From positions 23,675 to 87,674 of the forward strand of contig JBBSCG010000003.1 of NCBI GenBank assembly GCA_038250515.1: a DNA stretch of 64,000 bases, read 5' to 3'. The position numbers and the translations under genes were made by a program. Shown here piece by piece: positions 3,294 to 33,861 of this stretch. The stretch's first letter is position 1. Each line of letters opens with the position of its first letter. Origin of the DNA: Candidatus Limnocylindria bacterium (GTDB taxonomy: Bacteria > Chloroflexota > Limnocylindria > QHBO01). The notes beneath the pieces were generated by a model. The model had not been told where the DNA came from, made no database searches, and saw only the letters and a list, made by a program, of their open reading frames with translations.

Positions 3294-4052
3294 CTACCGT
3301 GCCGTCCAGCCGCCGTCGACGTAGATCTCCGATCCGGTCATGTACGAGGCTGCATCCGTCGCCATGAAGGCGATGACGTCGCCGATCTCCTCCGGGCGTC
3401 CCCATCGGCCCATCGGCGTCGAGTCGATGATCGCCGTCTCGGTGGGGGTGCCCTTCAGCGACTCGACCAGCGGCGTGTCGATGAAGCCGGGATGGATCGA
3501 GTTGACCCGGACACCCTCCTTGGCGTAGCGGATCGCGGCGTTCTTGGTCATCAGCCGCACCGCGCCCTTGCTGGCGTGGTAGGCGATCGATGCGCCAAAG
3601 CCACCGACCGCGCCGAAGATTGAGCTGACGTTGACGATCGAGCCACCGTCGCCGGCCTTCATCTTCGGGATCGCGGCCTTCATTCCCAGCCAGACGCCCT
3701 CCTGGTTGATGGCGATCGTCCGATCCCAGCCCTCGGTCGTCTCCTGCTCCACATCGGCCATGGAGCCGATGCCCGCATTGTTGACCAGGACGTCGACGCG
3801 CCCAAACTCGGCGGCAGTCCGGTCGACCAGCTGTTGCCATTGCCCCTCATCGGTCACGTCAAGATGCGCGTACTGCACAGAGCCGCCCTCGGCGCCGATC
3901 TCGCGCGCCAGGTCCTCGCCCTCGTCGTCCAGCACGTCCGTTGCAATGACCGTAGCCCCGTCGCGCGTCAGCGACCGGACTGTCGCTGCGCCGATGCCTC
4001 GTGCGGCCCCGGTGACGATCGCCACCTTGCCGCGCAGTGTCTCTGCCATGGC
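3294..4052 (-). CDS. SDR-family short-chain dehydrogenase/reductase
   Basis: TGAARGIG cofactor motif, NNAG, and YHASK catalytic motif. Start refined to the ATG coding MAETLRGKVAIVTG at complement 4050..4052. Confidence 0.85.
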   Translation of the reverse strand, partial: AMAETLRGKVAIVTGAARGIGAATVRSLTRDGATVIATDVLDDEGEDLAREIGAEGGSVQYAHLDVTDEGQWQQLVDRTAAEFGRVDVLVNNAGIGSMADVEQETTEGWDRTIAINQEGVWLGMKAAIPKMKAGDGGSIVNVSSIFGAVGGFGASIAYHASKGAVRLMTKNAAIRYAKEGVRVNSIHPGFIDTPLVESLKGTPTETAIIDSTPMGRWGRPEEIGDVIAFMATDAASYMTGSEIYVDGGWTAR

Positions 4053-7127: not shown

Positions 7128-8263
7128 TCGACCGGCGCAGCCTAGCGTTGCTCACGCTCGGTGGCGCGTCGCTGTTGGCCGGCCTCACCGGGGCCCTGGC
7201 GCTGCTCGGCCTGGCAGTGGCGCCCGGCACCGCCCACCTCGCGGCGGCCCACGGCCTGCTGATGGCGCTCGGCTTCCTGGGCACCATGATCGCCCTGGAG
7301 CGGGCGGTCGCACTGGGCGCGCGCTGGGCCTACCTCGCCCCGCTGGCCGCCGGGCTGGCCGCCGTGGCGCTCGTGCTCGGCATGCCGCACCTGCTCGCCG
7401 GCCTCCTCTTCCTGATCGGTGGCCTCACCTTCGTCGCCATGTACGTCGCCTTCGACCGCATCGAGGCGTCGCTGCACACCCGGGTCCAGGCCGCCGGGGC
7501 GCTCGCCTGGCCCGTCGCCGTACTGCTCTGGCTGACCGGCCGCCCGGTGAGCGCCATCGTCCCCTGGCTGGCGGCCTTTCTGGTGCTCACCATCGCCGGG
7601 GAGCGGCTCGAGCTGTCGCGCCTCGGCCGGCTCTCGCGGCGCGCCCGTCTGACCTTCATCGGCGCCGCGGCGCTCTTCTGCGCGGGCGTCATCGTGAGCG
7701 TGGCCGGCCCCGAGACCGGGACGCGGCTCGCCGGCATCGGCCTGGTGGCGGTGGCAGCCTGGCTGGCGAGCCATGACCTGGCGCGCCGGACCGTCCGGAT
7801 GGCAGGCGTCACCCGGTACATCGCCGCGTGCCTGCTCGTCGGCTACGGCTGGCTGGCCGTCGCTGGGATCTCGTGGCTGGTGTTCGGCGCGGGCAGCCCT
7901 TCCGCGTACGACGCGATGCTGCACACCCTCTTCCTGGGCTTCGTGATCTCGATGGTCTTCGGCCACGCGCCGGTCATCGTGCCGTCCGTGCTCCGCGTGC
8001 CACTCCCCTATCACCCGCGCTTCTACACGCACCTGGCGCTGCTGCATGCCGGGCTGCTGCTGCGGGTGGTCGGCGGCGACCTGCTCGGAGCTCGGCCGCT
8101 GTGGCAGGCCGGCGGCATGCTAAACGTGCTCGCGCTGCTGCTCTTCGTTGCCTCGTCCGCCATCGCGGTCGTCCAAGGCCTCGCTTCGCGGCGACCGCAC
8201 CCGCCGCGGCGGGTGGTCGGCGACGTTCAGCGGATCCAACGAGAGGCCATCCGCATCGACTGA
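7124..8263 (+). CDS. Polytopic integral membrane protein, unknown function
   Basis: 379 aa with about 10 hydrophobic helices. ATG overlaps the DUF59 stop (ATGA). Confidence 0.7.
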   Translation: MIDRRSLALLTLGGASLLAGLTGALALLGLAVAPGTAHLAAAHGLLMALGFLGTMIALERAVALGARWAYLAPLAAGLAAVALVLGMPHLLAGLLFLIGGLTFVAMYVAFDRIEASLHTRVQAAGALAWPVAVLLWLTGRPVSAIVPWLAAFLVLTIAGERLELSRLGRLSRRARLTFIGAAALFCAGVIVSVAGPETGTRLAGIGLVAVAAWLASHDLARRTVRMAGVTRYIAACLLVGYGWLAVAGISWLVFGAGSPSAYDAMLHTLFLGFVISMVFGHAPVIVPSVLRVPLPYHPRFYTHLALLHAGLLLRVVGGDLLGARPLWQAGGMLNVLALLLFVASSAIAVVQGLASRRPHPPRRVVGDVQRIQREAIRID

Positions 8264-8279
8264 GAGAGCTCGGCGCGTG

Positions 8280-9590
8280 TCAGCCGCGAACCGGGTTCGA
8301 TGAGCCCACAAGCAGTGCGGCGACCAGCAGGCCGATGGCGGCGACCAGCGCGCCGCCGAGCAGGATTGCTCCCGCGGCAATCAGTGGCCCGATGCCGAGG
8401 CCCAGCCCGGTCCACAACAGGAGCACACCCAGGTTCCAGGCCACGATGCGCAGAGAGCCCCAGCGCGACAGCACCTCGCGCTGCCGCGCCTTGGCGGCCA
8501 TGTCGCCCGGGCCGACCGCCGGCAGGAGGTGTCCCCACGCGCCGACCAGTTCCTGCAGCGCCCAACCGCCGATGAGCGGCACCGCCATGGCGCCAACCGA
8601 CCAGGCTGGGGGCGCAACGCCATCGCGCACGAGCCCGACCAGCGCCGTCGCCACCGTCACCACGAACCACGCCATGCCGGCGATGCCATGGCGCGCCGTC
8701 AGGGCATGCCAGGCCAGGTCGTTCGCCCATCGGCCGCGGCGGCGCCACACATCCACGCCGTAGCCGAGCAGCCCCAGCCCGCCGGCCAGCGTCGTCGCCG
8801 CCCCGGCCACCGCGATCGCCTGCGCTTCCAGCGCCGCGCCCGCCGCGACGATCGGCGGTCCGATGAGCAGCCCGAACACCGCCACCGCCATGCTCGGATG
8901 CGGCCGGATGCGCGTCCCGAGCATCGTCGGGTAGAGGTAAATCAAGGTTCCGGTGATCGTCAGCGACACGAAGCCGAACACGTTCAGCCAGACGTGCGCC
9001 GGCTTCAGCGCGATCCAATGCGAAGCGACCGGCCCCCAGCCGAGCAGCAGCAGGATCGCCAGCGACGCGCCCACCGTCATGTCGGTGAGCGCGACGCCGT
9101 AGGTCACCTGCACGATCGGGTGTCGACGCGCGAGCCCGGATCGCATGGGGGCATACGTGTTCCAGGCGGTGATCCCTAGACCGATGAGGACCAGCAGGCC
9201 ACTCCCGGCCGCCACGCGATTACCGGCCAGTGGCCGGCCGAGCGCCACGCCGGCCATGCCGAGCGCCAGGCAGAGCACACCCGCCAGGCGCACGCGGGCC
9301 GGCTCCGCGCGCGTCCCCGCCAGCGTCACGCCGAAGTGCGGCATGAAGGTGCCGATCGCGACGGTCGTCGCGCCGGCCAGCGCCAGGTGGATCGCGGTCC
9401 AGCCATGAAGCGGTCCGAACGGCATCAGGCCGCCAACGAGGGAAAGGACCACGAAGCTTGCCGCCAGGGCAACGCCCAGCTGCAGGATGGTGCGTTCGGT
9501 GAGACGTCGAGATGCCGGAGCTGCATCACGCCGCTCCGGCATCGGACCGATGACCAGGTCCATCGGGTCAGTTGAGCGGATCGCCATCAC
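8280..9590 (-). CDS. Polytopic membrane protein, possibly NnrS-like (NO-response heme-copper membrane protein)
   Basis: 436 aa, about 12 TM helices with conserved His in TM segments. It overlaps the 3' end of nirK on the same strand (operon). The NnrS assignment is tentative. Confidence 0.65.
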   Translation of the reverse strand: MMAIRSTDPMDLVIGPMPERRDAAPASRRLTERTILQLGVALAASFVVLSLVGGLMPFGPLHGWTAIHLALAGATTVAIGTFMPHFGVTLAGTRAEPARVRLAGVLCLALGMAGVALGRPLAGNRVAAGSGLLVLIGLGITAWNTYAPMRSGLARRHPIVQVTYGVALTDMTVGASLAILLLLGWGPVASHWIALKPAHVWLNVFGFVSLTITGTLIYLYPTMLGTRIRPHPSMAVAVFGLLIGPPIVAAGAALEAQAIAVAGAATTLAGGLGLLGYGVDVWRRRGRWANDLAWHALTARHGIAGMAWFVVTVATALVGLVRDGVAPPAWSVGAMAVPLIGGWALQELVGAWGHLLPAVGPGDMAAKARQREVLSRWGSLRIVAWNLGVLLLWTGLGLGIGPLIAAGAILLGGALVAAIGLLVAALLVGSSNPVRG

Positions 9591-23042: not shown

Positions 23043-24071
23043 ATGCAGCCGTGGAGCCACGAATTCGCCGGCCGGATCGACGAGCACGTCATCGACAGCC
23101 AGGCGCTCACCGCCAATCCGCTCGGCGACCCGCATCGGCGCCCGCTGTATGTCTACACCCCGCCCGACTACGACGCGGACGCCGACCGAACCTATCCGAG
23201 CATCTACGTCATCCAGGGACTGACCGGTCAGCTCGACATGTGGCGCAACCGCAAGGCGTTCGCGCCGAACCCGCTGGAGCTGACCGACACGATGTTCGCG
23301 GCAGACGACGCCCCCCGTGCCATCGTGGTGTACGTGGACTGCTGGACCAGTCTCGGCGGCAGCCAATTCCTGGACTCGCCAGCGACCGGCCGCTACCACA
23401 CCTACCTGTGCGATGAGGTCGTGCCCTTCATCGACGCGCACTACCAGACGGCGCCCAAGCGCGAGCATCGCGGCATCGCGGGCAAATCGAGCGGGGGCTA
23501 CGGCGCGATGGTGACGCCCATGCTTCGTCCCGACCTGTTCGGCGGGCTCGCGACGCATGCGGGCGACGCGCTGTTCGAGGTCAGCTACCAGCCCGACATG
23601 CGCGAAGCGGCTCGCGCCGTGCGCGACCAGTACGACGGCAGCCTCGACGCGTTCTGGGCCGATTTTCGCTCGCGCCCCGGACAACCAAAGAAGTCCGATG
23701 GCTCGCTGCTGAACGTGTACTGCATGGCCGCCTGCTACTCGGCCGATGCGGACGGTACCGTCCGGCTTCCGTTCGACCTCGCGACGGGACGCATGATTCC
23801 CGAGATCTGGGACCGATGGCTCGCCTGGGATCCGGTGCGCATGGCGCCGCAGCACGCGGACGACCTCCGCGCCATGCGCGCCATCTGGATCGATGCCGGA
23901 CGTTCCGACGACTTCTACCTCGACCTCGGCGCCGAGGCATTCCGCGACGAGCTGACGAAGCTCGGCGTCAGCGAACAGGTCCATTTCGAGCTGTTCGACG
24001 GCACGCATGCCAATATCGAGTGGCGCTACCCCATGGCCATCCGCTTCCTCGCTGAGCGGCTAGCCCCTTGA
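23043..24071 (+). CDS. Esterase-family alpha/beta hydrolase (enterochelin-esterase-like)
   Basis: GKSSGGYGA nucleophile elbow. Typical putative-esterase architecture. Confidence 0.75.
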   Translation: MQPWSHEFAGRIDEHVIDSQALTANPLGDPHRRPLYVYTPPDYDADADRTYPSIYVIQGLTGQLDMWRNRKAFAPNPLELTDTMFAADDAPRAIVVYVDCWTSLGGSQFLDSPATGRYHTYLCDEVVPFIDAHYQTAPKREHRGIAGKSSGGYGAMVTPMLRPDLFGGLATHAGDALFEVSYQPDMREAARAVRDQYDGSLDAFWADFRSRPGQPKKSDGSLLNVYCMAACYSADADGTVRLPFDLATGRMIPEIWDRWLAWDPVRMAPQHADDLRAMRAIWIDAGRSDDFYLDLGAEAFRDELTKLGVSEQVHFELFDGTHANIEWRYPMAIRFLAERLAP

Positions 24072-26351: not shown

Positions 26352-26385
26352 GCCGATCAGCAGCGGTTGTCCGCGTCGAACCCGC
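26352..26385. repeat. Direct repeat copy 2, overlapping the last codons (SGGFDADNRC) of the hydrolase-like gene
   Basis: See 24177..24210. Confidence 0.75.
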
Positions 26386-27283
26386 CTGAGAAGTACTGGC
26401 TCAGCGCTACCCGGCCGGTGGTGAAGCCTGACCCGATGCAGTTGCGCTTGGCACCCTGCAGGTTGCTCGCGCCGGCGACCCAGCTGGGATAGCTGCTGAA
26501 GGCGCCGGTGTTGCCGGTGATCTGGCCCCACATCCGCGGCGCCGAGTAGAAGCCAACGCTCGCCGCATTGACTGTTTCGAGGTAGGCGACCGCGCCCTGA
26601 AGGGCCGCGACATTCAGCGCGGTATCGTCGCGCCACGAGTTCGCGGTCTCGACGTCCAACCACCAGTGATTGGCAACCGGCGTGCGCGTGGCGCCCTGGT
26701 TGGCCCAACCGAGCGAGATATAGGCATCGACGGCGGTGCGATACGAATCAGCGGCGGCATTCCAGCCGTAATCGAATGCGCAGTCGGCCGTATCGGGGTT
26801 CGCCGCGTCGCAGACGCGCGGCACGCTCTGGCCGGTGGGCCAACGCGACGAAAGCTGCGGCCCGGGATTGCCGGTGTTCGCGTACAGCTCGGCGTTCATG
26901 CCCGCCCAGTTCAGCTGGCTCGATTGGGTCCCGGCGCCCAGGCACGGATTGGCCCTGAACACGATTCCCTGGTTGACGCCCACGATGCCGAAGGCAACGT
27001 TGGTCGGCAGGGTTGTGCTGCACTGTGGATAGCTCACGTCGTAACCGATCGGCGTGGGCGGCTTCACCGGCTTGGCATGGTCGCCATTCGATCGCTCGAC
27101 GTCGACGCCCGCGACCGGGCCACCTGCCGCGGAGAGTCCGGGAAGCAGGCCGACGAGGATGACGGCGAAGATGGACGCGGCGACGAAACGCCTGTGGCGG
27201 CGCTCCGCAGTTCGCGAAAGCATGGTCTCGGCGCTCGGTGAAACTACGAACGTACAGCCTAGCAGGCCCCGTGCGGATCGCAA
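26357..27283 (-). CDS. Secreted hydrolase-like protein (GH25/DUF1906-like fold), signal anchor
   Basis: N-terminal hydrophobic segment, GYDVSYPQC ... FGIVGVNQG motifs. Start uncertain. Confidence 0.6.
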   Translation of the reverse strand: MRSARGLLGCTFVVSPSAETMLSRTAERRHRRFVAASIFAVILVGLLPGLSAAGGPVAGVDVERSNGDHAKPVKPPTPIGYDVSYPQCSTTLPTNVAFGIVGVNQGIVFRANPCLGAGTQSSQLNWAGMNAELYANTGNPGPQLSSRWPTGQSVPRVCDAANPDTADCAFDYGWNAAADSYRTAVDAYISLGWANQGATRTPVANHWWLDVETANSWRDDTALNVAALQGAVAYLETVNAASVGFYSAPRMWGQITGNTGAFSSYPSWVAGASNLQGAKRNCIGSGFTTGRVALSQYFSGGFDADNRC

Positions 27284-27332
27284 GCAGCCAGGCGGCGGCG
27301 TCCGAGCGGCGTCGGCCTCGTATGCTCAGCGC

Positions 27333-27869
27333 ATGACGTTGCTCTCCCGACCAACCGTCCTGCTTGGGCCGGGTGCATCGGGCGGAATCGAGCGACTGGT
27401 GCCCTACGTCGACGGGCTTGAACGCCGCGGCCTTACGGCGCGGGCCGTTGCGCTGTCCCGCGGCAAAACCGACCCGGCCCTGGCAGCGTACCGGGCCGCA
27501 CTTGCACAGCTCGCGCCGGAACGGACGGTCATCGGCGGGCACTCATTCGGTGGCCGCGTTGCGTCGCTGCTGACCGCCGAGATCGAGGTCGCCGGATTGG
27601 TCCTCTTTGCCTATCCGCTTCATCCACCCGGAAAGCCGCATCTCTGGGACGAGCGCACCGCCCACTGGCCGGCCATCACCTGTCCGGTGCTGCTGCTCTC
27701 CGGTGAGTCGGACCCCTTCGCGGAAATCGGGCTGCTGCGCGCCGCCATCAAACGGTTGCCGAATGCCGAGCTGGTGACGTATCCGCGGGTGCGCCACGGC
27801 ATCGGTCCCGTGCTGGATGACGCACTCGACCGGGTCGCAGGCTTCGTCAAGTCGCACGTCGCGTACTAA
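27333..27869 (+). CDS. Small alpha/beta-fold hydrolase
   Basis: GGHSFGG nucleophile motif. Start refined to the ATG for MTLLSRP. Confidence 0.7.
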   Translation: MTLLSRPTVLLGPGASGGIERLVPYVDGLERRGLTARAVALSRGKTDPALAAYRAALAQLAPERTVIGGHSFGGRVASLLTAEIEVAGLVLFAYPLHPPGKPHLWDERTAHWPAITCPVLLLSGESDPFAEIGLLRAAIKRLPNAELVTYPRVRHGIGPVLDDALDRVAGFVKSHVAY

Positions 27870-27922
27870 ACCGAATATTCGATGGGCCGAGCCGGGCATG
27901 GTATCTTCGGCACATTCCGCGG

Positions 27923-27998
27923 GCGGGAGTAGCTCAGTTGGTAGAGCGTCAGCCTTCCAAGCTGAATGTCGCGAGTTCGAACCTCGTCTCCCGCTCCA
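27923..27998 (+). tRNA. tRNA-Gly (anticodon TCC)
   Basis: Cloverleaf by eye: acceptor GCGGGAG/CTCCCGC, D-arm GCTCAGTTGGTAGAGC, anticodon stem TCAGC/GCTGA with loop CTTCCAA, T-arm GCGAGTTCGAACCTCGT, encoded CCA. Confidence 0.85.
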
Positions 27999-28091
27999 AA
28001 GCACATCGGTGGCTGCCTGAATGGCAGAAAGCACTCCGAGGTCGCCTCGAGCAGGGGGCAGCGGGGCTGGCCTACGGCCCTGGCCTGGCGC

Positions 28092-30614
28092 ATGATGACC
28101 GTCGTGCGCTCTGATCTCCCCAGCGGCACCGTCACCTTCCTGTTCACCGACATCGAGGGTTCGACCAGGCTGTTGCACGAGATCGAGGCTGAGGCCTATG
28201 CCGATGCCCTGGCCGAGCACCGCCGCATCGTGCGCGAGGCGTTCCGGGCCGAGGGCGGGGTAGAGGTCGACACCCAGGGGGATGCCTTCTTCGTGGCCTT
28301 TCCAACCGCGCCAGGCGCTCTGCGGGCAGCGGCTGCGGCGAACGAAGGACTGGCGCCGGGTCCGATCCGCGTGCGGATGGCCATCCACACCGGCACGCCG
28401 TACCTGACCGAGGAGGGCTACGTCGGGGTCGACGTCCACCGCGGTGCGCGCATCGCGGCGTCCGGCCACGGCGGCCAGGTGCTCGTCTCAGCCTCCACGG
28501 CTGCCCTCCTTGGCACGGATGGGCTGCGTAACCTGGGCGAGCACCGCCTCAAGGACCTTTCGGCACCCGAGCGCATTTACCAGCTCGGCGACGACGACTT
28601 TCCGGCACTCAAGTCGCTGTATCGGACCAACCTGCCGGTACCGGCGACCCCGTTTCTGGGTCGCGAGCGGGAGCTGGCCGAAGTGGTCAAGCTCCTGGAG
28701 CACGACGACCTACATCTGCTCACCCTGACCGGGCCGGGCGGCACCGGCAAGACGCGGCTCGCCCTGCAGGCCGCGGCGGAGGCTTCCGAGTCCTTCCCCG
28801 ACGGCATCTACTGGGTGCCACTCGCGCCCCTGCGCGACCCCGAACTCGTGCTCTCATCGGTTGCGCGGACGCTTGAAGTCAATGAAGAGCCCGATCGCCC
28901 CATCCAGGACACGCTCAGCGCGCACCTGGCGGGCAAGCGCCTGTTGCTCGTCCTCGACAACCTCGAGCACCTGTTGCCGCAGGCGACCGCACCGATCGCC
29001 GCACTCCGTGACGCAAACGGGTCTTCCCTCCTGGTGACGAGCCGCGAGCGGCTGCGGATCCGCGGCGAGCAAACCTGGCCGGTGCCGCCGCTCGCCGACA
29101 AGGACGGGGCGGCGCTGTTCGTGGCTCGTGCGCAAGCGGTCGACCCGTCCTTCACCCACACCCCCGCAGTTGACGAACTGTGCGCTCGACTCGACGAGCT
29201 TCCGCTGGCGATCGAACTCGCCGCCGCCCGCACCGCGGTCTTCTCGAGCGCGCAGTTGCTCGAGCGACTGTCCGGGCGCCTTGACCTGCTCAAAGGTGAG
29301 CGCGACGCCGATCCGCGCCAGCAGACGCTGCGCGCCACCATCGAATGGAGTCACGCCCTGCTCGCACCGCCGGAGGCACAACTCTTCCGCGGGCTCGCGG
29401 TCTTTGCCGGCGGCTGCACGTATGACGCCGCCGAGCAGGTCTCGGGCGCGGACCCCGACACCCTGCAATCGCTCCTCGACAAAAGCCTTCTGCGCAAACG
29501 GGATGCCGCCTACGGGCCTCGTTACTGGATGCTCGAAACGATCCGCGAGTTCGCCGCCGAGCGGCTCGAGGAGTCGGGCGAGGCCGAGCCGTCACAGCGG
29601 CGGCACGCCGAGCACTTCATGGCCCTGGCCCAGGACGCGGAGCCGAATACACGCTCGTACTCCGCCGAGTGGATCGAGCGGCTAGAGATGGAGCATGACA
29701 ATCTGCGCGCCGCGCTCGACTACCTCGCGGCCTCAGGCGAAAACGAACTGGTCTTGCGATTGGCCGGAGCCCTGTCGGATTTCTGGCACTACGGGGGGCA
29801 CGTCGCCGAGGGCTGGCGTCGTCTCGAGAGCGCACTCGAACCAGAGGAGCGCCCGACGGCGGCCCGTGCCAGGGCCCTCACTGGGGCTGCCGACATGGCG
29901 TATGGGAGCGGAGATGCTGCAACAGCCAGGTTGATGGCCGAGAAGGCGCTCGCGCTCCATCGCCAGCTTGGGGACACGTGGGGCGCCGCATATGCGCTGA
30001 ACCTGCTCGGCGTGGCCTTCATCGAGGAAGGAGACTTCGAGCGGGCGCAGCAGCTCGTCGAAGAGGCAGTAGATCTCTTCCGCCGGCTCGGCGATGACCA
30101 GTTCACGCTCGCGGCAACTCGCACTCTGGCATTCGCTTACTACAGCCGCGGCGACCTCGACCGCGCCCGCACGCTCCACGAAGCGAACCTTCGCCGGGCG
30201 AGAGCGGGGGGCATGAAGGAGACCGAGGCTGGGACGTTGGGCTCCCTGGCGATCATTGCCGTCGACCAGGGCCGCGTCGATGACGCGCTCGCGTTGGTGA
30301 AGGAAAACGTATTGGTCGCGCGCGACCTTGGCTCCGCGCACGGAATCGCGCAGAGTCTCTGTCGCGCCGCCGATGTTCTCGCCCGGTTCCTCGGGAATGC
30401 GCACGCGGCCGCCCAACTCCTCTCCTGCTTCGAGGGCCTGCGACAGCAGATCGGCGTCAGCGAGGCCTGGGTCTCGAGGATGAACGAGCAGACGCTCGCG
30501 GCCGTCCACGCGCAACTCGACGCCGCCGCCTTTGCCGACGCATGGGAGCAAGGCCGGAAGCTGACGGTCGACGAGGCCGTCGCGCTCGCCCTCGGCTCGG
30601 TTGAACCGGCATGA
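28092..30614 (+). CDS. Class III adenylate/guanylate cyclase fused to AAA/NB-ARC-like ATPase and TPR repeats
   Basis: FLFTDIEGST ... TQGDAFF cyclase core, Walker A GPGGTGKT, C-terminal TPR-like repeats. Start refined to the ATG for MMTVVRSD. The longer ORF start would overlap the tRNA. Confidence 0.85.
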   Translation: MMTVVRSDLPSGTVTFLFTDIEGSTRLLHEIEAEAYADALAEHRRIVREAFRAEGGVEVDTQGDAFFVAFPTAPGALRAAAAANEGLAPGPIRVRMAIHTGTPYLTEEGYVGVDVHRGARIAASGHGGQVLVSASTAALLGTDGLRNLGEHRLKDLSAPERIYQLGDDDFPALKSLYRTNLPVPATPFLGRERELAEVVKLLEHDDLHLLTLTGPGGTGKTRLALQAAAEASESFPDGIYWVPLAPLRDPELVLSSVARTLEVNEEPDRPIQDTLSAHLAGKRLLLVLDNLEHLLPQATAPIAALRDANGSSLLVTSRERLRIRGEQTWPVPPLADKDGAALFVARAQAVDPSFTHTPAVDELCARLDELPLAIELAAARTAVFSSAQLLERLSGRLDLLKGERDADPRQQTLRATIEWSHALLAPPEAQLFRGLAVFAGGCTYDAAEQVSGADPDTLQSLLDKSLLRKRDAAYGPRYWMLETIREFAAERLEESGEAEPSQRRHAEHFMALAQDAEPNTRSYSAEWIERLEMEHDNLRAALDYLAASGENELVLRLAGALSDFWHYGGHVAEGWRRLESALEPEERPTAARARALTGAADMAYGSGDAATARLMAEKALALHRQLGDTWGAAYALNLLGVAFIEEGDFERAQQLVEEAVDLFRRLGDDQFTLAATRTLAFAYYSRGDLDRARTLHEANLRRARAGGMKETEAGTLGSLAIIAVDQGRVDDALALVKENVLVARDLGSAHGIAQSLCRAADVLARFLGNAHAAAQLLSCFEGLRQQIGVSEAWVSRMNEQTLAAVHAQLDAAAFADAWEQGRKLTVDEAVALALGSVEPA

Positions 30615-31024
30615 CGGAGTCACGTTCTGACCTCCCCTCCGGCACGGTCACCTTCCTGTTCACCGACATCGAGGGATCGACCAAGCTGTTGCACCAGCTC
30701 GGAGCCGAGGCGTATGCCGATGCCCTGGCCGAGACCCGGCGCGCTGCGCGCAGCGGCTGCGGTGACCGACGGGCTGGCCCATGGTCCGATCCGGGTGCGG
30801 ATGGCCATCCATACCGGCACGCCGCACCTGGGCGAGGAGGGCTACGTCGGCAGCGACGTGCACCGCGGCGCCCGCATCGCGGCGTCCGGCCACGGCGTGC
30901 TATCGATGAGCGACGGCGGCTCGTGGACCGGTGTGCTACCGAGGCGGACGCTGCCCGGCTGTGGGCCGATGGGCAGGCGATGAGCGTAGACGAGGCCGTC
31001 GCCTACGCGCTCATTGTCAGCTGA
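30611..31024 (+). pseudogene. Internally deleted, frameshifted duplicate of the upstream adenylate cyclase gene
   Basis: Starts (ATGA overlap) with MTESRSDLPSGTVTFLFTDIEGSTKLL, identical in pattern to the intact gene. The cyclase continues in a second frame (IRVRMAIHTGTPHLGEEGYVGSDVHRGARIAASGHG). It ends with a tail like the intact C-terminus (SVDEAVAYAL vs TVDEAVALAL). Confidence 0.7.
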
Positions 31025-31230
31025 CGCGGCACAGGCCCAGGGAACCCGAATCGGCTCTCGACACGAACCGCGCGCGTTTTGGACGTTCCAGTCCAAGTTG
31101 TCGATCAAGGCTCAGCCATTCACAGGATTCAGTGTGCGACGCACCTGATGTCCCATCGGGGTGACGAAGACACGATAACTGGACGCGTTTCGCTCAAGCC
31201 CCACGCTTGGTGCCACTGCGCTCACACGTC

Positions 31231-31280
31231 CCGGCCTTCCAAGGTCGATGTCGCGGGTTCGAACCCCGTCTCCCGCTCCA
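31231..31280 (+). other. 3' remnant of a tRNA-Gly(TCC)-like gene (anticodon loop through CCA; no 5' half)
   Basis: CCTTCCAAG ... GTCGCGGGTTCGAACCCCGTCTCCCGCTCCA parallels positions 27956..27998 of the intact tRNA. No D-arm or acceptor 5' strand upstream. Confidence 0.6.
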
Positions 31281-31304
31281 AATTTCCCACCGCGCGACAA
31301 CGCG

Positions 31305-31475
31305 TCAGTCGGATCGAACGCTCCTCCGGGCCTCTTCGAGCATCGCGGTCAGCTCCTCATCACATTCCAGCTCGAACTTCACCGCGACGACATCGAGCAT
31401 CTCGAGAGCGCGCTTCTTGAGCCGTTCCCTGTCACCGTTGTGAGCATGGCTCAGCGCCGCGTGGTAGCTCACCAT
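31305..31475 (-). CDS. Small hypothetical protein
   Basis: 56 aa (MVSYHAALSHAHNGDRERLKKRALEMLDVVAVKFELECDEEL...). Weak. Confidence 0.25.
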   Translation of the reverse strand: MVSYHAALSHAHNGDRERLKKRALEMLDVVAVKFELECDEELTAMLEEARRSVRSD

Positions 31476-31716
31476 CACGGTCCTGACCGCTAATCCGATT
31501 CTGCTGTGACCGTCCACACGTCCCCCTGGGTACGTGCGACGCCTCTCAGCACACTCCGTGCCCACGGGTAGGCCGAGGAGCGCGCAGCCCGCACCGTGAA
31601 CAAGGAGCGCCGCGAAGCTGGCGAGACCAAGAGGAAGGCCTGAGCGCAGCTCGGCGGCGACAGGCTGAGCGGTTCGGTGCGAGACCGCCTGGCGCCGTGC
31701 AACCGCGTCGGCACCG

Positions 31717-32393
31717 GTGTTGCATGCTGCGTTGGGAATGATCAACCGCTCAACTGCACCGATCATCATCGGACCGTCCGTCGCGCGGGCCGCGGGAATC
31801 GGGCTCACCGCCTACGGCCTGATCGGAATCGTGCTCATCGCCGTGACGCTGCTGGTCGGCGGCGCTGCGCTCGGTCGCGTGGAACGTCTGACGGGTTCGC
31901 TGAACGGCACGCTGACCGCCGCCGCAACGACGGCGCGCAGCTCCGTCAAGGCCCTCGGTAACCTCCAGGAAGGCGTCGGCACCAGCAGTACGGCGGCCCA
32001 CGACGCGAGCGGGCTCGTCGACCAGGCCTCGACTACCAGCGCGCAGCTGGGCGCAGCCATGACCCTGTCCATCCTCGGCGCGCAGCCACTGCTGCCCATG
32101 GCGGCCAGCTTCAACGACCTGTCGACGCAGCTGCGCAGCCTGTCGGGCGATCTGCGCTCGATATCAGCGGCGGGGACCTCGACCGGCTGCAGCTCGACAT
32201 GCAGCGACTAACGACCCGCCTCGAGAGCCTCGACGCGAGCAGCGCGATCGTCACCGGCGGCAATCTGCGGCTCGCGCTCCTGGCGCTGCTCACCTGGCTC
32301 GCCTTTCTTGCACTTGGCTCGCTGCTGCTGGGGATCGCACTGCTCGCCTTCGTCCGCCGGCGCGTGCCTGTCGTTCCTGTCAGCGACGCTTGA
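31717..32393 (+). CDS. Membrane protein with coiled-coil middle, interrupted by a frameshift near 32165-32185 (possible pseudogene or sequencing error)
   Basis: ORF 31717..32211 (N-terminal TM) continues in another frame as ORF 32199..32393 (C-terminal TM). The alternate frame reads smoothly across the junction (…LDISGGDLDRLQLDMQRLTTRLESL). Confidence 0.5.
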
Positions 32394-32407
32394 CGCCTGG
32401 CTGAACC

Positions 32408-33223
32408 TTACTGAACCTGACCCCGCAGCCACGCAACAACGTCGGCAACCACTGCCCGTCCCTCGGGCTCGTTATGCAGCTCGTGGCGTAGCCCGGGATA
32501 CACCCGCCGGGTCACGCCCGGCACCCGCGCCAGCGGTTCGGAGGCTGACGGCGGCACGAGCCAATCCGCATCGCCATGCATTACCAGGGTTGGAACGTGG
32601 ATGCGTCCGATCCCCGCCCGCGTCCGTGCCTGCGCTGCGAACGCCTCCCGGCCGAAGCGGAAGGTCTGGCGGTTGACGACAAGCGGGTCGCTGCGGAACG
32701 CCTCCGCGACCGCCGGATCACGTGACAGCACCGAGAAGTCGTCGTCGCCCGACACGCTGACCCACGGCAGGACGCGTCCGAGCACGGCCGCCGCCCAGCG
32801 CAACCACTTCGGATGCCCCGAATCCAGCCCCGGCGCCGACAGCACCATGAGATCCGGCTGCGGCCTCGCACTTTCCGCGTACTCGACGCAGATCAGGCCG
32901 CCCATCGAGTGGCCGTACAGCACCAGCGGCAGCCCCGGCCGCCGCGCAGCCGCCATCCGGCCCTCGAGATCGTCGAGCAACGACCGCCAAACCCGCACAT
33001 CACCGCGACGCCCTCCCGACCCGCCAAAGCCCCGTTGGTCGTAGGCGCGCACCTCCAGACCCGCCTCGGAAAGCCACTCACCGACGTGCTCGTAGCGACC
33101 GCTGTGCTCCGATACGCCGTGAACGAGCAGTACAACGCCCCACGGCTCGCCGCGCGCGGCCCACGACCGCGCGAGCAGCGGCGTGCCGTCGGCGGCGGCG
33201 ACCGGATCGGTCTGTGAAGCCAT
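32408..33223 (-). CDS. Alpha/beta hydrolase (lysophospholipase / monoacylglycerol lipase-like)
   Basis: HGVSEHSGRY and GHSMGG motifs, 271 aa. Confidence 0.8.
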   Translation of the reverse strand: MASQTDPVAAADGTPLLARSWAARGEPWGVVLLVHGVSEHSGRYEHVGEWLSEAGLEVRAYDQRGFGGSGGRRGDVRVWRSLLDDLEGRMAAARRPGLPLVLYGHSMGGLICVEYAESARPQPDLMVLSAPGLDSGHPKWLRWAAAVLGRVLPWVSVSGDDDFSVLSRDPAVAEAFRSDPLVVNRQTFRFGREAFAAQARTRAGIGRIHVPTLVMHGDADWLVPPSASEPLARVPGVTRRVYPGLRHELHNEPEGRAVVADVVAWLRGQVQ

Positions 33224-33240
33224 AAGCCCGATAATGACCC

Positions 33241-33861
33241 ATGGCCGACCTGTTGATCGAGGACCTCCTGCGCGACGAGGGCTTCCACAAGACCGATGCG
33301 CGCGCCGCCGCGCGCGAGGTGCTGGAGGCGAACGGCCTCACCCGGCCGGGCAAGGCGCGCATGGCACCGGACAAGCTCGACCGCGTACGTGCCGCACTCG
33401 ACCGTGCCATCGTGCGCCACTGCTCGGATCCGGCGTGCATCGCCGCGGTCGCGGCCGACCCGCGTCGCCACCTCGAGGTCAATCGACCGCGCTGCTCCAT
33501 CTGCTCCGGTTCGAACAACCGCCGCGCACTGCGTGCCATGGCGGAGGCCTGTCTTGCGGCCGGCGTGCGGCGCGTGCTGATCGTCGGTGGGCGCTCGCCT
33601 GCGTACGTCGAGCTGGAGCGCACGCTGACCGAGCTCGAGCTGCGCTTTGTGGACGGCACCTCCAACCTGCCCAACGGGACCGATGCGCTGCGCGACTGCG
33701 CCTGGGCCGACCTGCTCATCGTTTGGGCGCCGACGCCGTTGCCGCACAAGGTCAGCACGTTGTATCGGTCCGAGGTATGCGACGTCGCGCACCGCGTGAT
33801 GGTCCATCGACGCGGGCTCGAGGCGCTGGCCCATGAGGTGGTGACGCACCTGTCGCGCTGA
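33241..33861 (+). CDS. Hypothetical protein with CxxC Zn-ribbon-like motifs
   Basis: HCSDPAC and RCSICSG motifs followed by a Rossmann-like segment (RVLIVGG). No family recognised. Confidence 0.5.
   Translation: MADLLIEDLLRDEGFHKTDARAAAREVLEANGLTRPGKARMAPDKLDRVRAALDRAIVRHCSDPACIAAVAADPRRHLEVNRPRCSICSGSNNRRALRAMAEACLAAGVRRVLIVGGRSPAYVELERTLTELELRFVDGTSNLPNGTDALRDCAWADLLIVWAPTPLPHKVSTLYRSEVCDVAHRVMVHRRGLEALAHEVVTHLSR

Follow-up and report, generated by a model that had tools for sequence, protein, structure and literature searches.

A cargo-only islet, probably derived by integration, at a tRNA-Gly(TCC) gene of a Limnocylindria bacterium, and the family of tRNA-anchored cassettes to which it belongs

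The stretch of Candidatus Limnocylindria bacterium contig JBBSCG010000003.1 analysed here (64 kb, positions 23,675 to 87,674; hereafter the window) contains a single tRNA gene, a tRNA-Gly(TCC) at 27923-27998 on the plus strand (ARAGORN; Rfam tRNA 73.4 bits), downstream of genes for a hydrolase and a GGDEF protein. The tRNA is followed by a gene for an 840-aa protein combining a nucleotidyl cyclase, an NB-ARC/STAND ATPase and TPR repeats, by a degraded second gene of the same kind and by a copy of the 3′ half of the tRNA. A preliminary description made from the sequence had named these four features and read them as the scar of site-specific integration; all four were recovered here by independent means, whereas the tRNA remnant, there treated as an isolated fragment, proved to be part of a conserved unit of approximately 125 nt, the other part of which (31161-31233) had gone unnoticed. 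The features of the locus are listed below, host-type and donor-type denoting the two versions of tRNA-Gly that are compared further on.

27923-27998, plus strand: intact tRNA-Gly(TCC), candidate attL; host 5′ part through GCTGA followed by a donor-type T-arm GCGAG...CTCGT (ARAGORN, Rfam, chimera match)
27966-27973, plus strand: probable strand-exchange interval ATGTCGCG in attL, placed by host-type sequence 5′ and donor-type sequence 3′ of the block
27999-28091, plus strand: leader on the element side, separating the tRNA from the cargo gene, the expected place of a downstream (P′) arm
28092-30614, plus strand: cargo gene for a class III nucleotidyl cyclase with NB-ARC/STAND ATPase and TPR, 840 aa (Pfam)
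30611-31024, plus strand: pseudogene of a second, tandem cyclase-STAND paralogue (blastn, translation, blastx)
31161-31233, plus strand: conserved element arm (P arm; alignment of loci L031 and L103, 59 pattern instances, nhmmer, alignment of 50 units)
31234-31282, plus strand: remnant, a tRNA-Gly 3′-half copy, candidate attR; donor-type GGTCG, ATGTCGCG, then host-type T-arm and acceptor strand
31283-31490, plus strand: native flank once directly 3′ of the tRNA (B′ side), overlapping a conserved minus-strand open reading frame (ORF) at 31305-31808

The remnant aligns without gaps with 27952-28000 at 44 of 49 positions (90%; 45 of 51 with two extra bases), and its final 16 nt, CGTCTCCCGCTCCAAA, are the same as in tRNA-Gly. 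It has no 5′ half and is not a complete tRNA of another kind, since no tRNA was called there by ARAGORN or by Rfam at E≤1; at that threshold Rfam found nothing in 31161-31282, and nothing else in the window reached gathering level. The 15-mer shared by the two 3′ ends occurs exactly at only two places in the window, against a chance expectation of 0.15 at up to two mismatches; a further site with two mismatches (GTCTCCTGCTCCACA, 3739-3753) lies far from the locus and is probably due to chance. An intact tRNA at one end with a direct repeat of its 3′ part at the other is a feature of tRNA-targeted islands. The 3.2-kb island is accounted for in full by the cyclase gene, the pseudogene and the arm, with no integrase, and neither the leader (27999-28095) nor the spacer before the arm (31025-31165) had blastn similarity to any of the loci fetched.

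Syntenic relatives were found through homologues of the downstream hydrolase (window 32408-33223). The relative L191, read on the reverse complement, matches the window in the following blocks.

Window 26357-27849 with L191 6710-8207, 73%: upstream genes
Window 27919-27998 with L191 9009-9089, 94%: tRNA-Gly
Window 31234-31490 with L191 9043-9285, 67%: remnant and its flank with the tRNA 3′ half of L191 and its native downstream flank
Window 31710-33843 with L191 9366-11530, 74%: downstream genes

Gene order around the tRNA in L192 and L193 is as in L191, and that in L189 is likewise so on the downstream side. In each of these relatives a single tRNA-Gly abuts the flank that is found 3′ of the remnant in the window, and there are no cyclase genes. 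Because two separate lineages have the tRNA directly joined to this flank, window 27999-31233 is, on this comparison, an insertion into the tRNA-Gly locus, in keeping with the earlier reading of the repeat as an integration scar. Both the synteny and the tRNA-locus matches are to Limnocylindria-type Chloroflexota, although the named homologues of the cyclase are from Gaiellaceae.

The relatives also allow the two junctions to be read. Their tRNA 3′ half has the form GCTGA-ATGTCGCG-GGTTCGA(A/T)CCCCGT-CTCCCGCTCCA. The intact tRNA of the window has kept the host GCTGA, paired with TCAGC in its own 5′ strand, while its T-arm differs and is internally paired as GCGAG...CTCGT. The remnant has the reverse composition, with a T-arm of host type (GCGGG...CCCCG) and a foreign GGTCG where the host has GCTGA. 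The combination of GGTCG with GCGAG/CTCGT is that of the functional tRNA-Gly(TCC) type of loci L142 and L156, in which CGACC pairs with GGTCG; decay at random was therefore rejected as the source of GGTCG in the remnant, which equals the anticodon-stem strand of this natural variant. Splicing host and donor at ATGTCGCG predicts the remnant (donor then host) at 38 of 38 positions and the 3′ half of the intact tRNA (host then donor) at 37 of 38, the difference being one T-loop base. Read from these alignments, the two tRNA-like ends are reciprocal host/donor recombinants, and since the donor core is of the L142/L156 type the element would once have been resident in a lineage with that tRNA-Gly.

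The block ATGTCGCG is 8 nt long, covers tRNA positions 44-51 (the variable loop and the first 3 nt of the T stem), recurs in attR at 31248-31255 and is near-invariant over 50 aligned units. The exchange is placed here because the T-arm of the remnant is host-type; a crossover in the last 14-17 nt, where resident tRNAs and units never differ, was rejected on the same evidence from the empty-site relatives. An identical interval of 8 nt has the size of the overlap region of tyrosine recombinases.

We consider it likely, with a probability of about 0.8, that the locus holds an integration-derived, cargo-only island that entered by reciprocal, most likely site-specific, recombination with a circular element, our confidence being higher for the insertion itself and lower for a site-specific mechanism with a recombinase acting in trans. 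The circular element would have carried an attP-like module made up of an arm of approximately 70 nt that contains the site GACACGATAACTGGAC and, 3′ of it, half a tRNA-Gly (the 3′ half) from another host lineage. Exchange within ATGTCGCG between this module and the resident tRNA-Gly(TCC) would have joined the host 5′ part to the donor T-arm in a tRNA that was functional again, while the T-arm and acceptor strand of the host came to lie beyond the arm of the element, at the far end of the insertion. The cargo would have been a tandem pair of cyclase-STAND-TPR genes, the second of which was later gutted by deletions. The exchange would be the work of a tyrosine-type recombinase acting in trans with the arm as its binding site, as suggested by the conservation of the sites together with the reciprocal 8-nt exchange.

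The arm and the tRNA half form a unit that recurs widely. A degenerate pattern for both versions of the tRNA half, run on species-representative genomes, matched at least 120 loci, most of them in Chloroflexota (Limnocylindria or "Chloroflexia") metagenome-assembled genomes; among the matches listed were 118 complete tRNA-Gly genes and two remnants without a 5′ half (L031 and L103), in both of which approximately 75 nt 5′ of the remnant resembles window 31150-31233. The most conserved stretch of the arm, GACACGATAACTGGACNCGNTTCNCTC, used in turn as a pattern, matched at least 49 metagenome loci from soils, sediments and permafrost. In all there are at least 59 pattern instances, and a profile built from them found more diverged copies (approximately 60 copies, from Chloroflexota metagenome-assembled genomes and metagenomes). 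The unit of approximately 125 nt consists of the arm of approximately 70 nt, with the consensus GTGACGACACGATAACTGGACACGTTTCGCTCGGGCCCCTGAGCACGGTGC...CGTCCCGG, and the tRNA 3′ half from the anticodon loop to CCA; mean column identity over 50 non-redundant units is 84%. The window copy has the arm site GACACGATAACTGGAC at 31169-31184, with no second site like it in the window, and matches the unit profile in nhmmer at 31165-31287 with 116 bits, where typical copies score 140-173 bits.

Conservation of the arm is at the level of primary sequence, and its core is repeated 3′ of the tRNA-like core. The downstream segment, CTTCCCGGTTTCGTGCTCAGGACGACACGATAACTGGAC, is present in 39 of 62 complete units, and the arm site it repeats, GACGACACGATAACTGGAC, is found in those 39 units and also behind 30 of 126 intact tRNA-Gly genes. 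Protein-binding sites of arm type on both sides of the attP core are a property of classical tyrosine-integrase systems. A unit flanked by a repeated arm site thus fits attP-like arms around a core, and by analogy the arm may be a recombinase binding site like those flanking attP cores.

The unit is not confined to tRNA-Gly(TCC). In Arg-type units the arm precedes a tRNA-Arg(TCT)-like 3′ half (L146:1893-2011, L157:3414-3532 and L170:9049-9167, unit-oriented), with an intact tRNA-Arg(TCT) 1.5 kb (L146) and 5.5 kb (L170) upstream of the unit; within the element family they form a sister lineage with a changed tRNA target. One unit, in L167, has the arm joined to a Gly(CCC)-like half. Among viral contigs, neither the tRNA-half pattern nor the long arm pattern gave a match, and of 13 matches to the 16-nt arm core only one is genuine, L180:7249-7348 on the minus strand (IMGVR_UViG_3300046505_000116), on a contig predicted to be viral or satellite-like, in which the arm is joined to a tRNA-like core. 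The core of L180 diverges after GCGGGTT in the T-arm, being truncated in the T-loop, and the units of L160 and L134 break off at about the same place. The contig encodes a D5-type primase, an N6/N4 DNA methylase and a Terminase_4 small subunit, with no integrase visible, and nothing else found here hints at an autonomous relative of the satellite type. L189 contains a variant of the unit in mirror image (reverse complement 3575-3678, originally approximately 8715-8818), approximately 5.3 kb upstream of the intact tRNA-Gly, where a 45-nt copy of the tRNA-Gly 5′ half (97.8% to that of the window) ends just past the anticodon loop and is joined to an inverted, diverged arm, ...GCATAACTGGGCCCGTTACGCTCGAG...; the interval between variant and tRNA contains AbiEi/AbiEii, TusA, an HTH_5 regulator and a pyridine-nucleotide oxidoreductase. 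This variant suggests that islands can also build up 5′ of tRNA-Gly.

Elsewhere the unit bounds cassettes. At 13 loci the unit is preceded, at a distance of 1.4-6.5 kb and on its own strand, by an intact tRNA whose identity matches that of the unit; 11 of these are Gly/Gly (the window included) and two are tRNA-Arg(TCT) with an Arg-type unit (L146 and L170). Units also occur in series, with four in 14.7 kb in L169, two in several other contigs and exactly one 1183-aa gene between the two of L031. Between units there are one to three genes of very varied kinds, including RCC1-repeat, PKD/HYR and Ig-domain surface proteins, a serpin, an ECF sigma factor, methyltransferases, a ferric reductase, an adenosine deaminase, an esterase and an ABC ATPase; the cyclase-STAND proteins are by far the largest cargo family, with 25 of 200 called proteins (the window gene included). 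Loci L129 and L131 are 88% identical at the nucleotide level from the first base of the unit onwards for more than 4 kb and unrelated upstream of it (an Ig-domain gene versus a cyclase-STAND gene), so that the unit marks the border between variable cargo and conserved chromosome. In Limnocylindria-type Chloroflexota the family is abundant, as cassettes of one to three genes with the same bounding unit, stacked at tRNA-Gly(TCC). Some cassette arrays also contain c-di-GMP-II-GAG riboswitches, oriented against the units (RF03169; L021:1706-1790, plus, 73.6 bits; L169:618-702, minus, 43.3 bits; L169:10761-10844, minus, 62.3 bits; gathering score 40), by which nucleotide cyclase genes are combined with riboswitches of the cyclic-dinucleotide type; none is present in the window.

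A recombinase was sought in the window and in the unit-bearing loci. By phmmer screens of six-frame ORFs, which covered the window and every locus, the 64-kb window has no tyrosine recombinase, the seed having been an approximate XerD sequence that served for screening only. Pfam found no recombinase domain in the ten ORFs between 24.2 and 34.6 kb, the stretch to which the search for serine recombinases and transposases was limited. Of the islands bounded by units, only that of L162 has a trace of an integrase, a truncated C-terminal fragment at the contig edge; no replication module or recombinase of the tycheposon type was found in the window island, nor anything other than this fragment in unit-bearing loci. 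The fragment (131 aa) belongs to a family of short tyrosine recombinases (P0121-P0240) with approximately 1200 matches at 73-90% identity, which are called at 150-229 aa (modal 212) with the catalytic domain alone annotated; in L173 a 106-aa ORF abuts the integrase start, so the short length may partly be an effect of gene calling. In five genomic contexts (L173, L174, L175, L194 and L195) these integrases are in surroundings of mobile or defence type, among resolvase, Dam, RAMA, restriction-modification and PycTM genes, and in three of these contexts tRNA-Arg genes are nearby.

Other tyrosine recombinases were seen only in unit-free loci, those of Chloroflexota adjoining tRNA-Gly. These Xer-like genes (L008:1284-2324, L041:1735-2691, L085:6456-7430, L106:1437-2411 and L046:368-1342) lie immediately 5′ of tRNA-Gly(TCC) in divergent orientation, with no unit in the stretches fetched for these loci, and their position beside this tRNA is curious. 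Given their high identity across species (92-97% among L008, L041, L085 and L106; 72-97% with L046), they probably represent a conserved chromosomal housekeeping gene.

Several of the observations weigh against entry by a site-specific recombinase. No complete integrase is present in approximately 50 unit-bearing loci, and no recombinase could be linked to the units; no unit accompanies the L162-type integrase in its five contexts; and no autonomous parent element was found, the nearest candidate being L180 with its arm, truncated core and no visible integrase. In the window itself no recognisable arm motif follows the tRNA in the 93-nt leader (27999-28091), the nhmmer match to the unit profile ending at profile position 127, unlike 30 of 126 tRNA-Gly genes elsewhere, and the G+C content of the island is the same as that of its surroundings. 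The ancestral host tRNA type is read from relatives with only 67-78% nucleotide identity in the flanks. As the arm motif served as the search pattern, conservation of the arm core is partly by construction, and it is the flanking arm positions and the units found by the profile only that are free of this effect. The lack of integrases would suit entry of a circular or linear DNA with a tRNA-Gly-like segment through host homologous recombination, by a Campbell-type single crossover at that segment, with arrays growing likewise, and a single homologous crossover gives the same reciprocal chimeras. We regard this as improbable, as the shared tRNA homology is only approximately 48 nt, in identical blocks of 8-16 nt between the host and donor partners, the exchange lies in the shortest of these blocks rather than the longest, and neither a strictly conserved, non-tRNA arm of approximately 70 nt nor a second downstream site would have a role. 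Identical blocks of 8-16 nt are too short for efficient RecA-dependent recombination.

The unremarkable G+C content would also suit a purely local rearrangement, in which a tandem duplication of tRNA-Gly was followed by loss of the 5′ half from the downstream copy, with ordinary chromosomal cyclase paralogues lying between the two; these bacteria have a huge cyclase-STAND family on their chromosomes, and the two gene copies suggest local duplication. This explanation is contradicted by the empty site in the relatives and by the presence of the arm 5′ of remnants at unrelated loci in other genomes, and duplication with deletion would not give the reciprocity of a foreign anticodon-stem strand in the remnant and a foreign T-arm in the tRNA, so that we give it almost no credence. 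Scarcely more probable is a role of the unit as functional RNA, whether as a gene for a small, tRNA-like RNA or as a 3′-end processing or stability element of the upstream gene. In at least five loci the upstream cyclase-STAND gene has its stop codon within the first part of the arm (GTGACGACACG), and the T-arm hairpin is intact, but that hairpin is inherited from real tRNAs and provides the sole compensated pair in an RNAalifold consensus of the 50 non-redundant units (-13.3 kcal/mol, covariation term 0.19). The acceptor 3′ strand has no partner within the unit, Rfam gave no match at the units, and the type of unit follows the neighbouring tRNA (Gly or Arg). Cassette genes are found on both strands upstream of units, and therefore the unit is not a gene-specific 3′ element or 3′ untranslated region. 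Reciprocal, most likely site-specific, integration of a circular element remains the explanation we prefer.

The state of the window copy indicates that this insertion is old and immobilised, with its first gene still intact. The unit has eight mismatches at columns conserved at 90% or more, where the median is one and only L167 has more, and it is of the terminal type, without a downstream arm, as expected at a junction with host DNA. The decayed arm, the absence of an arm after the tRNA and the pseudogene are the grounds for this view, and the copy is thus probably no longer mobile. The preliminary description had called the locus a relic from the lack of an integrase; its decay supports that verdict and no tyrosine recombinase was found, but the absence of an integrase is normal in the family and taken alone is no proof of relic status. 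For the family as a whole it is conceivable, though doubtful, that a still-active system exists in which cassettes of one to three genes, each with an attP-like module of approximately 125 nt (arm sites and an imitation of a tRNA 3′ half), are inserted, stacked and exchanged at tRNA-Gly(TCC), and in the sister lineage at tRNA-Arg(TCT). Under this tentative extension the recombinase would be encoded elsewhere or on a helper, the cyclase-STAND sensor genes would be the preferred traffic and the arrays would be tRNA-anchored and integron-like.

The cargo gene was taken to begin at 28092, the first ATG outside the tRNA in the ORF ending at 30614. Its product has Guanylate_cyc (37.7 bits; cut-off 21.9), NB-ARC (40.2; 23.5) and TPR_12 (57.2; 30.1) domains in one polypeptide and more than 8000 homologues, the best 82% identical, and falls in cluster C0, which is met more often than any other as cargo between units. 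Both metal-binding motifs, FTDIEGST and GDAFF, can be read in the sequence, while the catalytic N..R motif reads VHRGARI, with His in place of the usual Asn. No NCBIfam equivalog cut-off was reached, the AfsR, HaaT TPR-ATPase and LipJ-type cyclase models being far below threshold, and PADLOC gave domain-level similarity only (PycC 19.3 bits, a TPR model 24.8 bits) with no system model matched; with scores this weak the protein was not assigned to a defence system. Its order of cyclase, NB-ARC and TPR is that of STAND ATPases with a class III cyclase effector and of AfsR-like NB-ARC-TPR regulators, from the latter of which it differs by having no DNA-binding domain. Judged by its domain architecture, its most likely function is ligand sensing by the TPR region, with nucleotide-dependent oligomerisation and a cyclic-nucleotide output. 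The closest homologues (L001-L003, 71-82%) were rejected as guides to synteny, being beside other tRNAs or none and without the repeat scar; the two at 82% amino acid identity (L001:1913-5232 and L002:994-3993) both adjoin tRNA genes, one between tRNA-Thr(TGT) and tRNA-Tyr, 5′ of rpmG-secE-nusG, and the other just 5′ of tRNA-Val(GAC), neither with a tRNA repeat scar.

The second ORF (30611-31024, 137 codons) has its ATG overlapping the TGA of the cyclase gene. It matches that gene in two blocks at 87% (30623-30742 with 28107-28226, and 30735-30897 with 28311-28473), and its frame is broken because of a 92-bp deletion between them. A further stretch of approximately 2.06 kb (28474 to approximately 30530) is missing and the C-terminal tail, ...WADGQAMSVDEAVAYALIVS*, is kept. 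The degraded copy is 80-81% identical in amino acid sequence to the cassette gene of L031 and 81-86% to its own neighbour. The tandem copy had been attributed to duplication and deletion; the deletions are borne out, but a recent duplication is not, as 87% identity fits an older pair. The two genes look like old tandem paralogues of the kind found in arrays such as L142.

The 5′ side of the tRNA locus differs between the window and L191. A conserved minus-strand ORF (window 26357-27283; 61% amino acid identity to an ORF of L011) shares 230 nt with a plus-strand ORF whose Abhydrolase_11 match covers the C-terminal part only (window 26357-27869), and L191 has at the matching place a 115-aa Abhydrolase_11 fragment. 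The window is without the response-regulator gene of L191 and approximately 0.8 kb before the tRNA (27849-27919 versus L191 reverse complement 8207-9009). These differences imply that this side has been remodelled too.

Limnocylindria and related Chloroflexota are abundant uncultured soil bacteria and, to our knowledge, their means of gene exchange are essentially undescribed. The window locus is itself a relic of modest interest and the wider interest lies in the cassette family, but as an occupied site with its empty counterpart it is a textbook case in which both junctions can be read and the exchange narrowed to 8 nt without experiment. The searchable unit of 125 nt marks cassette borders and so offers a handle on the flexible genome, on the preference for cyclase-STAND genes and on the recombinase. 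Should the cassettes move in trans, they would form a compact counterpart of the cassette arrays of integrons, with a tRNA as the anchor.

Among known systems, the tycheposons of Prochlorococcus integrate at tRNAs with partial tRNAs on both sides, successive integrations pushing older elements outward and leaving degenerate remnants, extra partial tRNAs and adaptive cargo, and were defined by 937 integrase-carrying elements with replication modules (Hackl et al., 10.1101/2020.12.28.424599). The cassettes resemble them in tRNA target, partial tRNAs, tandem arrays and degenerate remnants, and differ in the near absence of integrases, the size of 1.4-6.5 kb with one to three genes, the Chloroflexota host and the conserved non-tRNA arm beside every partial tRNA. 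In Dehalococcoides, also of the Chloroflexota, 31 islands linked to ssrA have been described according to the abstract, of approximately 12 kb and with an integration module in 16 only (McMurdie et al., 2011, PMC3146451). As far as the abstract of that study goes, the host phylum, the stacking at one tRNA-like gene and the frequency of cargo-only islands are shared with the cassettes; the target is transfer-messenger RNA rather than tRNA-Gly, and the abstract does not mention a conserved 70-nt arm.

A closer likeness is that to the cis-mobilizable elements (CIMEs) of streptococcal integrative and conjugative elements, a term that occurs in reviews (PMC5704250, for example). CIMEs are flanked by attL and attR, have no recombination or transfer genes and accrete in tandem with an autonomous element at the same att site, and their cognate integrative and conjugative element and its integrase are known. 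The window element shares with them the flanking site with an element-specific arm beside the core and the reciprocal host/donor ends, whereas the cassettes are much smaller and far more numerous, and the traces of a possible autonomous partner found here are limited to the truncated L162 integrase and L180. Integron cassettes likewise form arrays of small, mostly single-gene units that end in a recombination site, with variable cargo and a fixed anchor; here no integrase gene lies by the anchor in unit-bearing loci, cargo orientation is mixed and the anchor is a tRNA with a copied 3′ half. The unit is also unlike attC, which is an imperfect inverted repeat defined by structure, in having a conserved primary sequence (84%) with essentially no covariation. 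In pSAM2 and mycobacteriophage L5, att identity runs from the anticodon loop to the tRNA 3′ end, the tRNA is regenerated, arm-type sites flank the attP core and the element encodes its own integrase and excisionase next to attP. The att segment of the window unit has the same extent, without an integrase or excisionase of its own.

The window element is therefore best filed as a CIME-like, cargo-only islet, set apart from autonomous islands and tycheposons by the lack of an integrase and from integrons by two features. As a kind it is known, among tRNA-targeted islands and their CIME- or tycheposon-like remnants, while for the cassette-like family a limited literature search found no description. 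With its near-total lack of integrases, its single-gene cassettes and its 70-nt arm on every tRNA half, this family of Limnocylindria-type bacteria appears to be new.

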